From contig OX597824.1 in assembly GCA_951406725.2 (NCBI GenBank), forward strand, positions 53,816,001 through 53,880,000: a DNA stretch of 64,000 nt. The letters are read 5' to 3'. The notes beneath the pieces were generated by a model. That model saw nothing but the letters and a program-made list of their open reading frames with translations. It was not told the origin of the DNA and did no database searches. Every line of letters starts with the position of its first letter. The first letter of the stretch is position 1. The position numbers and the translations under genes were made by a program. Of the stretch, positions 5,270 to 61,474 are shown one piece after another. The DNA is from Octopus vulgaris. Lineage: Eukaryota.

Positions 5270-6250
5270 GACGTGTGCGTGTGTGTATGTGTAGGAGTGA
5301 AAACGTGGGGCTGGGAAGTGGTCAGTGTTAGTGCGTACGTGGTGGTGTGTTGTGATGAGATGTGTTGTGTGGTATGGTGGTGTATGGTGTAGTGGTCTGT
5401 GGTGTGGAGTGATGGTGTTGGGAGGTGGGGGAGGCAAGAGTGTGGAAGGTATAGGTGGGGTTGGAATGTGTAGGGGTTACAAGGGAGGGGTGACGATGAA
5501 GGGGGAAGGAGAAGATGGGTAGGAGTGAAGAGAAGAGAGGAGAGTAGGAGTGAAGAGAAGGAGTTGGAGCAAGAGAGGAGAGGTGGGTGGCAGGAAGTAG
5601 GTGTGAGGGGGAGAGACGCGAGGGGAGGGGGTTAGATGAAGAGGGGAGGAGATTTAAGCCCATGTGGCACAAAGGAGCAAAAAGAGAATATTAATCCCTG
5701 TTCAGGGCGCAAACGGGAGTCCACATGGCTCCTGTGTAAGGACAATCCGAACATGGACAGGTGTTGCAAAGATTGACTGGTAGAGCGGAAATAGTGCAAG
5801 AAGGGGTGTCATTGCCGAGTCGGATGTCTCAAAGGTGTTCCACGAATCCGTCAGCTGAGCGGAGTCCTAGTTTGCCCGATGTATAGAGAATGGCAGAGAG
5901 AGAGCAAGAGATGCAGTAGATGATATATATATGTATATATACCAGGAGTCCACATGGGCTCAACTCTCCTCCCCTTTACATCTAACCCCCTCCCCTCGCA
6001 TCTGTCCCCCTCACACCTACTTCCTGCCACCCACCTCTCCTCTCTTGTTCCGACTCCTTCTCTTCACTACTACTCTCCTACTCTTATATATATGTGTGTG
6101 TGTATTTATATACATATATATTATCCGAATTTTATAGTATTAAGTATCCATCACAGATGATCTGACCAATTAATTTCATGCAAAAAAATACAACAGAGTG
6201 TTAGGCAAGAAACCAATTATATAAATACATACGCTCATCAGAGGTAGCTG
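5270..6250 (-). mobile_element. Penelope-like element remnant (GIY-YIG) with inverted pLTR-like segment
   Basis: Minus strand 5925-5637 reads IIYCISCSLCHSLYIGQT...EQGLIF...PHGLK (frameshifted GIY-YIG). 5538-5638 is repeated inverted at 5979-6079. A hammerhead motif lies at 6154-6250. Confidence 0.75.
6154..6250 (-). ncRNA. Type I hammerhead ribozyme motif (degenerate)
   Basis: cagctacct-CTGATGA-gcgta...tgcat-GAAA-ttaattg-GTC-agatcatctg; core intact, stems partly decayed. Confidence 0.65.
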
Positions 6251-7114
6251 ACATGGAAGGGAATATGGCGACTGCTTGCCACTGCTGGAGGTGGATTAGT
6301 ACAACTGGTTGGCATCTGCTGTAAAAGGTAGTGAAATGTAAAAAGTTCCAGAGGATTTTGCTAGGAGTTATATCCCTTGGTTAGGTATGTTGTGGTGCCG
6401 GCTAAAGTCATCTTGAAGTGGGGTAAGTTTGTATTAATAATGTGGTTTCTCTGTGGGGATGGCGGCGTGTGTAGTGGTGATATATGTATAAATTTTTCTG
6501 GGGTGTAGATATATATAGCGCAGTGTTCTTTACTGTGTTTTCTTCCTGCAAAGGTTAAAGCTGTGGGGGTTTTTAATTTAGCATGCAGTGTGTAATGTGT
6601 AATGTATGATGTGTGTGTGTGGTGTTTGTTTATATGCGGGTCACAATTTGCATTAGGGAGTATGTGCTGGGGGTGGTGGGGGAATAGTTAACTGTGGGAT
6701 GTTCACTTTATAGAGGTGTGCATATGTACATGTGGGTGCACTGGTGTGTGTCTTGTTCAAACTCTTTACGCCAGGTTCAAGGTGGAAGATCGTTTGTAGA
6801 AGGTGGAAGTAGGGGACCAGTGGTTGCAGTCATGGTGGGTCACACAGGTATGACAGAATGTACTTTCTTTCATGTGGACAAGGATTAAACATCTCACACT
6901 TCCTATTGAGGTAAATATCTGGACATTGAGTGCCTTCTAAAATCGTCCTCTTCTTGGCTCTCTTCTGTGTCAACTTAATAGCACTTTTTGTGGCTTTTTG
7001 AGTCATTTTGACTCTTGTTTCTAGCAATGCTGGTACCATTTTGTACCCTTGCTTTTAGGTCTGAATTGCTAATGGCCCACCAATCTAATATGTTTAATAT
7101 ATATATATATTCTT

Positions 7115-7615
7115 TCATTTATTCTTTTAATTGTTCAGTCATTTGACTGCAGCCATGTTGGAGTACCACCTTAAAGGATGTTACTTGAAGAAATTGCCCC
7201 CAGGACTTATTCTTCGTAAGCCAAGTACTTATTCTGTTTGTCTCTTTTTCAGAACCACTAAGTTATGGGGACATAAACANNNNNNNNNNNNNNNNNNNNN
7301 NNNNNNNNNNNNNNNNNNNNNNNNNNNNNNNNNNNNNNNNNNNNNNNNNNNNNNNNNNNNNNNNNNNNNNNNNNNNNNNGTTATGGGGACATAAACACAC
7401 TAGCAACAGTAGTCAAGTGATGGTGGGGAGACAAACACACACAAATATATTCATATATATATACATATATATACGATCAGCTTCTATCTACCAAGTTCAC
7501 TTACAAGGCTTTGGTTGGCCCAAGACTATAGTAGAAGACACTTGCCCAAGGTGCCATGTAGTAGGACTGAACCCAGAACCATGTGGTTGGGAAGCAATCT
7601 TCTTCCCACACACCC
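7115..7615 (-). mobile_element. tRNA-derived SINE spanning the assembly gap
   Basis: Same tail and core as the other SINE copies; interrupted by Ns. Confidence 0.8.
7280..7379. other. Assembly gap (100 N)
   Basis: N run with the same 18-mer GTTATGGGGACATAAACA on both sides. Confidence 0.99.
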
Positions 7616-7639
7616 ATACTGTATATAAATATATATATA

Positions 7640-8557
7640 TACACTACATATGTGGAAATCTCTGGGTGTGTTTGTTTGTGGCGTTGCTATCTAACTTCTA
7701 CATTGTTTTATCAATTTTGATGGAATTTGACACATGAGTAGAATTCATGTTTGGAAAACTAGTGACATACTTAGATTGTTGAAAAGTCGATAATAGGACC
7801 CCTGGAAGGGATTCTTATATATACTACATATGACTAATATATTATTTTTAAACATCCAAGGGAAATAACCCATTCGCTCCTGAAAGGGATCCTTATATAT
7901 AGCCAAGGAAAATAACCCATTCGTGTTCATAAATTATTTCGTATAAATCAAATTAAGTATGCTTATTTCTTAGTATTTGAATTATTTGAGTTATTTTTGC
8001 AATTTATCCAGTACAACGCTTAAATAAGTAAACAGTATTTTCCTAAATAATAGATCCCCTTATTTTGGTTAGTGACTTATTCACAAATGTACCAACACTA
8101 GTGCCACTGAGGGTAATATTCTCTGTGAATGCACAAAAGCTTTTTTCAGAGTTATTTACTTTGAATTGTTATTATCTTATATCTGATTAGCCTGTTATTA
8201 TGTAACATGGTTCACGATTTTAGTATACATACCTTATTAGTATTTCCTCCTAAGTTCTATATACTCTGGGAACTATTAAAGTCCTTTTCGGGGCTACCTT
8301 ATTTGAATTCTTACTATCGGGTAATTAAGGTCATGCTATTACATAACTTACTTCACAATTTGGGTATTCATAACTTATTGGGAATTCCTAAAAACAAGAT
8401 CCTGTGTAAGACAGTTCGGCATTCTCAATAAATGCAGAAAAACCGTTTTAAGGGCTACATACTTTGTATTGTTGTTACTGGATTAGCAAAACAATTATGA
8501 GAACGGAACCAAGGGATAAGCCCCGCTTTTCCAGGAATTACCGGGAACGTCAGCTAG
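7640..8557 (+). mobile_element. Non-autonomous Helitron-like element
   Basis: 3' hairpin ttccaggaattaccgggaa followed by CTAG|T at 8554-8558; a related copy is at 50630-51645. Confidence 0.6.
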
Positions 8558-8620
8558 TCTATATATATATATATATATATATATATATATGTATACACAC
8601 TGTATTTTCCAATTTGGGCA

Positions 8621-59524: not shown

Positions 59525-60283
59525 TCTATATATATAAAACTGTAGTTGTGTGAGTGTCTGTCCCCTTCGATTTAGATTCCTAACTACTCCCACATTTTGC
59601 AGTGCAGTTTAACCAAATTCGGGTATCTTATAGTCGTGATTCATATCAAGCCCGTCTGAGTATTAGCACGCGTCTATGATGAGTCTATGATTTTAAAAAT
59701 AATTTAACATAATTTTTTATTCCATTTTAATGCATAATTTTTCGTGTGTCGATGGCGGCGGAGTTGGCGTCCACGCTCACACCTGCACCTGTGGGGAAGG
59801 GAGTGTAAGGAAATCAACGTCGTAATGCGTTGTCAAGGAGACCAGCGTTCTTTTAGAACAACGACTTCATGGCTTGAAGACACCAAAACAGAAATGGCTA
59901 AGAAAGCGTCTACATGAGTCTACGATTTAAAAAAAAATTTACCATCGTTTTTTTTCCATTTTAATGCATTTTTTCGCTATTATATAAGGGAAGTGTGTCG
60001 ATGGCGGCGGAGTTGGCGTCCATGGTCACACCTGCACCTGTTTGCTTCTCCCCCTTCTTTCCTCCCTCGTGAAGCTGTAGGGAAGGGAGTGTAAGGAAAT
60101 CAACGTCGTAAAGCGTTGTCAAGGAGACCAGCGTTCTTTTAGAACGACTTCATGGCTTGAAGACACCAAAACAGAAATGGCTAAGAAAGCCCGAATTAGC
60201 ATCTATAAGGGAAGTAACTCTCTAAAAATGCTTATATAGTTATATCCCTTACAAACCCGAGCAACGCCGGGCGATACTGCTAG
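59525..60283 (+). mobile_element. Non-autonomous Helitron with internal ~250 bp tandem duplication
   Basis: A|TCTATATATATAAAA start; cccgagcaacgccggg hairpin plus CTAG|T end; 59670-59905 is repeated at 59907-60190. Confidence 0.88.
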
Positions 60284-60422
60284 TTCATGATAAATATATG
60301 GTTTCAGAGTTTATTCTAGCACACTGTTACAATATTGTATTCACATTCACAGAATCATACATTTTCTCCTACAAAATATACTTTAATACAAGGGTGTGTC
60401 TTATACCCCAGCAAATATGGTA

Positions 60423-61140
60423 TATCATCATAATTGTTTAACGTCCGCTTTCCATGCTAGCATGGGTTGGACGGTTTGACTGGGGTTTGGGAAGCCAGGA
60501 GGCTGCACCAGGCCCAGTCTGATCTGGCAGTGTTTCTACAGCTGGATGCCCTTCCTAACGCCAACCACTCCGTGAGTGTAGTGGGTGCTTTTTACGTGCC
60601 AGGTGAGGCTGGCAACGGCCACGATTGGTTGGTGCTTTTTACGTACCACCGGCATGGAGGCCAGTCAAGGTGGCGCTGGCAACGGCCACGTTCGGATGGT
60701 TCTTTTACGTGCCACCGGCACTGGTATCACAACTGCAATTTCCATTGATTTGATCGATTTTGATTTCACTTGCCTCAACAGGTCTTCGCAAGCAGAGTTT
60801 TGTGTCCCAAGAAGGAAAGGGCCACGTTCACATGGTTCTTTTACGTGCCACCAGCACTGGAATCAAAACCGCAATTTCCATTGATTTTTGATCGATTTCG
60901 ATTTCACTTGCCTCAACAGATCTTCGCAAGCAGAGTTTTGTGTCCCAAGAATGAAAGGTATGCATAAGTGGACTGGCTACATCCCAGGTAGAGGCCACGG
61001 GTTATGGTCTCACTTGTCCTGCCGGGTCTTCTCATGCACAGCATACTTCCAAAAGTCTCGGTCACTAGTCATTGCCTTGGTGAGACCTAATGTTCGAAGG
61101 TTGTGCTTCACCACCTCATCCCAGGTTTTTCTGGGTCTAT
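60423..61140 (-). mobile_element. RTE LINE 3' end
   Basis: 3' UTR and last codons homologous to 9420-10110, with a duplicated UTR block. Confidence 0.88.
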
Positions 61141-61380
61141 GTCTATCTATATATATACATGTGTGTGTGTATATAAATCTCTAATTTTCATACTCATCTA
61201 TAGAGGGAACATCTATGAAACCTCTTTACTTATATCTTCAAATATCTGTTGTAGCCATTAGTTTTGGTAATCTATCTGACATGACTCACATCTCTTTCTC
61301 ACATGGATAAAAATATGAATCTTCTAGCTTCAATTTTTCTGCTATATTATTTCTCAAGTTCTTTGTATTATGGCTTTTAC

Positions 61381-61474
61381 TTCCTGCACTGAAGAGTATG
61401 TTGATATGTAATTTAATGTAATCATGAATTTACATTATTATTATATCTCTGTAGGAAACGATTGTCTGCAAGAA
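61381..61474 (+). ncRNA. Type I hammerhead ribozyme motif (best preserved)
   Basis: ttcctgca-CTGAAGA(61389-61395), long stem II, GAAA(61455-61458)-cgatt-GTC(61464-61466)-tgcaagaa; stem I 7 of 8 paired. Confidence 0.72.

Follow-up and report, generated by a model that had tools for sequence, protein, structure and literature searches.

A stretch of 64,000 nucleotides of the genome of Octopus vulgaris (assembly GCA_951406725.2, contig OX597824.1, positions 53,816,001 to 53,880,000; hereafter the window, with positions counted from its first letter) contains five candidate hammerhead ribozyme motifs, M1 to M5, at the positions and on the strands given in an earlier note made from the letters alone. 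Judged by its sequence, the set is real, with three motifs being clear, one decayed, and one doubtful. We consider it probable that M1, M2, M4, and M5 are the type I hammerheads of the 3' ends of several families of Penelope-like elements (PLEs), present as 5'-truncated copies within (TA)n, and that M3 is a chance match or a dead copy. The motifs and the segments that host them are as follows (ORF, open reading frame).

6154..6250, minus strand: M1, type I hammerhead with an intact core (CUGAUGA at 6241-6235, GAAA, GUC at 6166-6164)
6120..7090, minus strand: M1 host, putative 5'-truncated PLE 3' fragment of ~970 nt, between TA-rich runs
6830..7060, minus strand: putative C-terminal end, now broken, of the GIY-YIG ORF of a Hydra-clade PLE (motif at 6910-6860, stop at ~6830)
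8621..8700, plus strand: M2, hammerhead with an intact core, a stem I of 4 bp, a stem II of 52 nt (z -3.0), and one mismatch in stem III
8596..8790, plus strand: M2 host, a segment of ~195 nt without an ORF, between two (TA)n runs
15425..15484, minus strand: M3, hammerhead-like shape with a broken core, CUGCUUA, and (TA)n ~55 nt downstream
48705..48812, minus strand: M4, hammerhead with an intact core, a stem II of 75 nt (z -4.2), a perfectly palindromic stem III, and a stem I of 2 bp
48410..49886, minus strand: M4 host, a non-coding element of 1.5 kb, between (TA)n runs
61381..61474, plus strand: M5, the best formed hammerhead, with a stem I of 4 bp, a mismatch, and 3 bp, a stem II of 59 nt, a palindromic stem III, and GUC
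61175..61800, plus strand: M5 host, a segment of ~625 nt with no ORF recognised, between TA/CA runs

The intact CUGANGA/GAAA/GUH core in type I order is found in four of the five motifs and not in M3, in which A6 and G8 are changed, and whose class is observed twice versus 3.5 times in 139 shuffles, a chance level. Mutation of G8 abolishes cleavage in a PLE hammerhead (PMC11167929), and M3 is possibly a chance match or a dead copy. Stem III is a perfect palindrome in M4 (ACGAUCGU) and M3 (ACAUAUGU), is fully paired when G-U is allowed in M5 (ACGAUUGU) and M1 (AUUAAUUGGU), and carries one mismatch in M2 (AGUAAUAGU). Region II measures 57, 52, 34, 75, and 59 nt in M1 to M5, respectively, and its folding is significant in M4 (z -4.2), M2 (-3.0), and M5 (-2.2) but not in M3 (-1.3) or M1 (-0.2), so the extended stem II previously proposed for all of the motifs holds, as a stable structure of 52-75 nt, for M2, M4, and M5 only. 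Contiguous pairs in stem I number 4 in M2 and M5, both of which are also extended, 3 in M3, and 2 in M1 and M4. Taken together, all three helices surround the core in M5, while M2 has a mismatch in stem III, stem I is of only 2 bp in M4 and M1, and M1 additionally has a weak stem II. In none of the motifs folded is stem III long enough to close as a hairpin, while an intermolecular stem III duplex forms in M4 (-10.0 kcal/mol), M5 (-5.8 kcal/mol), M3, and M1, but not in M2. The hammerhead junction is the minimum-energy monomer fold in none of the five, with whole-motif z-scores of only -0.06 to -2.0. The stems had been described as sharing no primary sequence, and this is not fully right, as M1, M2, M4, and M5 share short stretches: CCUGAAGAUUG and CAUGAAA are common to M2 and M4, GCAUGAAA to M1 and M4, and GAAACGAUYGU to M4 and M5.

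These motifs were compared to chance using a descriptor that was defined after they had been seen (intact core, GUH, stem I of at least 2 bp, no more than one mismatch in stem III, region II of 20-100 nt) and 300 local dinucleotide shuffles. The window contains four matches (M1, M2, M4, and M5) versus a shuffle mean of 0.47, and none of the 300 shuffles reach four; with a stem II of -8 kcal/mol or lower added, three matches remain (M2, M4, and M5) versus 0.087, again reached in 0 of 300. A looser GUH version of an earlier descriptor catches M1, M4, and M5, with 0 of 200 shuffles doing so, while a stricter one (stem I of at least 3 bp, RUH) retains only M5 and is not significant (1 versus 0.23, matched by 40 of 200 shuffles). 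Covariance models of Rfam recognised no hammerhead family among the 36 window matches at E<=1.

Some other core-like sequences were considered and rejected. Scans with the long-stem-II core pattern produced five loci in viral_contigs, without hammerhead stems, and five in metagenome_contigs, of 47-56% GC and dissimilar to the window and to PLE proteins, all of which were taken as chance. Within the window, a 161-bp inverted repeat (97%, 23801-24361) contains a CUGAAGA…GAAA pair, a 13-nt palindrome, and a compensatory change between the arms; the core-like pair at 23855(+)/24307(-) was rejected as a hammerhead, having an AUU triplet, a stem II z of +0.3, and no (TA)n within 1.8 kb.

As to the origin of the motifs, one line of evidence is presented by the protein remnant near M1. 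A minus-strand frame ending at ~6830 holds LNRKCEMFNPCPHERKY, an exact fit to LN.[RK].E....C.H..K[FY], a motif that we derived from the consensus sequences given for the Hydra clade in the PMC8557442 supplement. It is the single exact match across six frames, at 6910(-), it does not occur in any of 200 codon-shuffled windows even with one mismatch allowed, and it is separated by ~670 nt from the M1 core, which lies downstream of it on that strand. By this motif, the C-terminal GIY-YIG with CxH after the conserved N and E is found in the M1 host only, the ORF fragment being truncated downstream of the RWK and DKT motifs and the CxCX5C linker. The order of the parts of this host (ORF end, a 3' UTR of ~590 nt, hammerhead, ~40 nt) likely represents the anatomy expected of a 5'-truncated Hydra PLE, with an ORF end, a 3' UTR, and a hammerhead in (TA)n. 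M1 itself, with its stem I of 2 bp and its stem II at chance level, is likely decayed. As a separate observation, a second PLE-like fragment lies directly behind the M1 host (5270-6079), with a GIY-YIG-like frame recognised by eye (5640-5930, minus strand) and an inverted piece of 130 nt (5538-5667 / 5950-6079); homologue searches of databases with the 5638-5898 remnant gave no match.

For the other motifs, location 3' of a PLE ORF is not seen, as no ORF was found for M2 to M5. The absence of a visible coding region noted earlier has its simplest explanation in a 5' truncation that falls within long 3' UTRs. M2 to M5 are instead connected to PLEs by signature and setting. M2 and M4 read CUGAAGAU-UG…CA-UGAAA, and the corresponding CUGA(A/U)GAU-UG…CA-UGAAA is found in 10 of the 26 hammerheads listed for Hydra elements in File S2 of PMC8557442. 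Hydra elements, one of which comes from Octopus, insert in (TA)n (PMC8557442), a preference common to the Hydra, Neptune, and Naiad clades, and TA-rich runs bound the hosts of M1, M2, M4, and M5. A run of (TA)>=4 is present within ~100 nt downstream of four of the five motifs versus 10% of random positions, the motif coordinates in this comparison being off by up to 4 nt. M2, in its short segment, looks decayed.

The most detailed picture is provided by M4, which is intronic to a gene of the HEATR5 family and has the sense orientation. Its host is of 17% GC, with a CpG observed/expected ratio of 1.8 versus 0.31 for the window, and shows no codon-position bias, including in the 950 nt upstream of M4. 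Reading TAA and TAG as Q produces long frames, but this reading was rejected, as many frames are open on both strands and GC is equal at the codon positions. Two further segments are related to the 3' end of this element:

49765..49886, plus strand: 57-nt inverted copy (96%) of the 3' end of the M4 host itself, with a tail of ~65 nt, at the 5' junction
4009..4220, plus strand: shorter relative of the M4 host 3' end, without a hammerhead (74% over 222 nt), with the same terminus

Inverted truncated pieces and optional tails are marks of PLEs (PMC8557442), the tail being explained by two internal start points of reverse transcription (PMC11167929), and the M4 host displays this architecture of an inverted, 5'-truncated piece and a 3' tail, with a tail of ~65 nt versus the 30-40 nt of published ones. 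The family was surveyed by aligning contigs from four sequencing runs to 631 nt of the M4 host. The numbers of aligned contigs were 2258, 1307, 299, and 60, the first three runs coming from three organisms, and the stretch is partly present in 20 of the 24 listed runs, under four organism labels. Summed depth over the 5' core of the M4 host reaches 4.9e5 in run X1 versus 39-91 for single contigs listed, a sum of contig depth not being equal to copy number. These data imply that the M4 family is very abundant across nearly the whole 631-nt stretch, and the high-copy region reaches at least 450 nt upstream of M4. Forty sites vary at 8% or more, none of them among the 18 positions of the core and stem III, and this invariance is consistent with selection. 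A variant at 48729 changes a U·G of stem II to U-A, and the partners 48792 (15-25%) and 48730 (13-23%) vary at similar shares and jointly restore their pair, which is only a hint of covariation, the variants being unphased and 48729/48730 being a CpG. Indels are mainly in the distal loop, the basal helix of 9 bp is kept in all of the majority variants folded, and in a few contigs stem II differs or is shorter. In run X15, whose RNA nature is a guess, contigs span the M4 cleavage site and are poorer in the AT-rich upstream part; this run was not used as evidence. The Penelope link proposed in the earlier note is supported by the Hydra remnant near M1, the Hydra signature in M2 and M4, the (TA)n bounds, and the architecture and abundance of the M4 host, in addition to which further PLE debris is present in the window at 54186-54830.

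A number of observations weigh against a PLE origin or against functional constraint. Searches by tblastn and HMM with 151 PLE proteins (selected by their relation to an ORF at 54 kb from 1712 found at E<=0.001, one of the 151 coming from another search) match only 54.1-55.0 kb and nothing near the motifs. Beside M2, M3, M4, and M5, 30 read-through frames have no relevant Pfam match, and the Hydra motifs have no convincing match, which leaves signature and context as the basis of the PLE origin suggested for M2 to M5. The M1 remnant found no match in homologue searches of databases, and its motif was written after the stretch had been spotted by eye. The (TA) run that follows M4 lies within its element, and that of M3 also borders a Helitron-like neighbour. 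In the M4 family, conservation of the core is not significant (P=0.15-0.30; P=0.15 locally), the majority variant at 48782 opens one pair of the distal extension at a cost of ~2 kcal/mol, and stem I remains at 2 bp, without a common variant restoring it.

Of the other possible explanations, the one that survives best, though we hold it to be clearly less likely than truncation, is that the M4 host, and perhaps those of M2 and M5, is not a truncated 3' UTR but a complete, SINE-like, non-autonomous parasite of PLEs, lacking an ORF. It agrees with the lack of codon-position bias or of a Pfam match in the 950 nt upstream of M4, and with a stretch that is high-copy for at least 450 nt upstream and young by its CpG content (1.8 versus 0.31). 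However, the 5' junction of the M4 host is an inversion, a typical mark of truncation, and the family alignment spans 631 nt only. Moreover, Octopus Naiad consensi possess AT-rich 3' UTRs of roughly 1 kb (PMC8557442) and that of M1 measures ~590 nt, so long non-coding tails are to be expected. A bolder version, which we view as rather unlikely, would make the M4 family a young non-autonomous Penelope parasite of 1.5 kb with thousands of copies, in which stem I was traded for a 75-nt, protein-docking stem II, and whose ribozyme would be obligately protein-assisted and dimer-dependent. If this were true, few ribozymes of octopus genomes would be as common as the long-stem hammerheads that Rfam does not see, and intronic copies in sense orientation, such as M4, could cut host pre-mRNAs while the element is active.

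The earlier note also spoke of retrozyme-like families. Non-LTR retrozymes consist of tandem units, each a few hundred nucleotides long, that make circular RNAs. Type I topology, a palindromic stem III, and the lack of an ORF beside M2, M4, and M5 are shared with these, and solo monomers that derive from PLE ends do exist (preprint 10.64898/2026.07.22.740005). Yet none of the five motifs is in a tandem repeat or recurs elsewhere in the window, and each of the 11 joints listed for the M4 family skips forward, with none going back, although units of more than 631 nt would escape this comparison. As no tandem units were found in either, the motifs are not retrozymes as defined, and we regard this explanation as improbable. 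The weakest proposal, that all of the motifs are chance matches in AT-rich, repeat-rich DNA, is true of M3 and could draw on the chance-level stem II of M1, the post hoc descriptor, the modest whole-motif z-scores, and chance matches of similar core patterns to prokaryotic DNA, but for the set it is refuted by the 0 of 300 shuffles that reach the observed counts, and the contexts of M1 and M4 are independent evidence, leaving it very improbable.

If the motifs are PLE 3' ends, as we prefer to interpret them, the following steps, inferred for insertion from published PLE work, may account for them. A protein of an autonomous PLE would nick AT-rich DNA and reverse-transcribe from one of two starts near the RNA 3' end, and these two starts would result in a shared 3' terminus and in the tail. 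Reverse transcription would usually stop early, inserting only the 3' UTR with the hammerhead, as a solo 3' end. As a palindromic stem III of 8-10 nt is unable to form a hairpin, two copies would have to pair through it for cleavage to occur, in agreement with the dimeric folding that such a stem implies (PMC4209133). The pairing copies would be tandem or inverted PLE transcripts, and cleavage probably also needs the PLE protein: the one PLE hammerhead tested with its protein cleaved only in the presence of that protein, and cleavage was dispensable for insertion in vitro (PMC11167929). The genomic copies here, being solo, are therefore probably silent, and this would account for the tolerance of an intronic M4 on the sense strand. 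The extension of stem II likely represents a tolerated, family-specific growth of a peripheral helix, and a change to U10.1·U11.1, as in M2 and M4, is known to be tolerated (PMC3088659).

Hammerheads at PLE ends are already known, including one of an Octopus Hydra element (PMC8557442). The new part is a stem II of 52-75 nt, two to six times the published Hydra length and missed by Rfam. We found no animal PLE families with a stem II of this length in the literature, a search that left out Repbase and Dfam, and PMC5785218 and PMC5850863 may describe longer stem II variants. Since Rfam misses long-stem hammerheads, counts for cephalopods, such as the 235 Hammerhead_1 loci reported for the giant squid (PMC6962438), may be large underestimates, and relaxing stem II in the descriptor would offer an inexpensive means of marking unannotated PLE ends. 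The M4 family, with its intact core, 2-bp stem I, and very high copy number, appears suited for testing the dependence of hammerheads on the PLE protein.

The window is animal DNA with many RTE-type LINEs, SINE-like repeats, Helitron-like elements, and (TA)n runs. Three segments, at 14600-15365, 32520-32890, and 59520-60285, are presumably Helitron-like non-autonomous elements at TA runs, recognised by eye. Two other features are of relevance:

31880-56400, minus strand: exons of a HEATR5-family gene (Pfam matches at 42.5-56.4 kb, C-terminus likely near 31.9 kb)
54186-54900, minus strand: PLE remnant with reverse transcriptase (RT) thumb and GIY-YIG, 59% identical to its best relative

Relatives of this PLE remnant fall into RT/GIY-YIG clusters, and no hammerhead follows it because an RTE LINE cuts its 3' end. 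Long inverted repeats of the foldback or MITE-like kind are present at 15916-16789 (305-nt arms, 96%) and 63513-63979 (160-nt arms, 86%). Near-perfect hairpins at 35850-35975 and 49976-50033, below the cut-off for several miRNA models of Rfam, are likely inverted-repeat debris.

Among known systems, the closest likeness is to the Hydra-clade PLE hammerheads, including Hydra-1_Obim of Octopus bimaculoides (Craig et al., 2021; PMC8557442, File S2), which are also of type I, near the 3' end, in (TA)n, and with a palindromic stem III; 10 of their 26 rows have a basal U·U in stem II with UG/CA next to it, as do M2 and M4, and the C-terminal LN..E....C.H..K motif of their protein is the one upstream of M1. 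However, region II is of 12-26 nt in these 26 rows versus 52-75 nt here, stem III is of 9-10 nt versus 8 nt in M4 and M5, M4 has a stem I of only 2 bp, and, compared by eye, none of the present motifs match the Hydra-1_Obim hammerhead. In the same supplement, the 3' ends of Naiad_Obim and Naiad_Ovul were seen by eye to have GAAA ~25 nt upstream of CUGAUGA, an order that may represent a permuted hammerhead behind the 'half core' label.

The minimal hammerheads of metazoan PLEs (Cervera and De la Peña, 2014; PMC4209133) are likewise mostly solo, heterogeneous, and associated with truncated PLEs, with thousands per genome, a larger-than-usual helix II, a palindromic helix III, and a dimer model, and a variant of Penelope from D. 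virilis has a helix I of 2 bp, as does M4. Their helix II is of 6-8 bp, unlike the region II of 52-75 nt here, and in place of their conserved G10.1-C11.1 there is a U·U in M2 and M4 and a G·G in M5, with a U-A as the next pair. Non-LTR retrozymes (PMC7229834; preprint 10.64898/2026.07.22.740005) are similarly non-coding, of type I, and PLE-derived, but their defining tandem units are absent here. A precedent for a long stem II is found in Selaginella, whose PLE-X1_sMoe and PLE-X1_sTam have a region II of ~50 nt and are marked as deviating from canonical (PMC8557442, File S2); these are, however, endonuclease-less, rDNA-targeting elements of a plant, and their region II is mostly a long loop, unlike the long helix here. 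Finally, Poseidon PAc of Anolis (Frangieh et al., 2024; PMC11167929), while belonging to another clade and having an ORF that, unlike here, starts inside stem II, serves as the functional model, with its protein-dependent cleavage, its requirement for G8, and its internal starts of reverse transcription.

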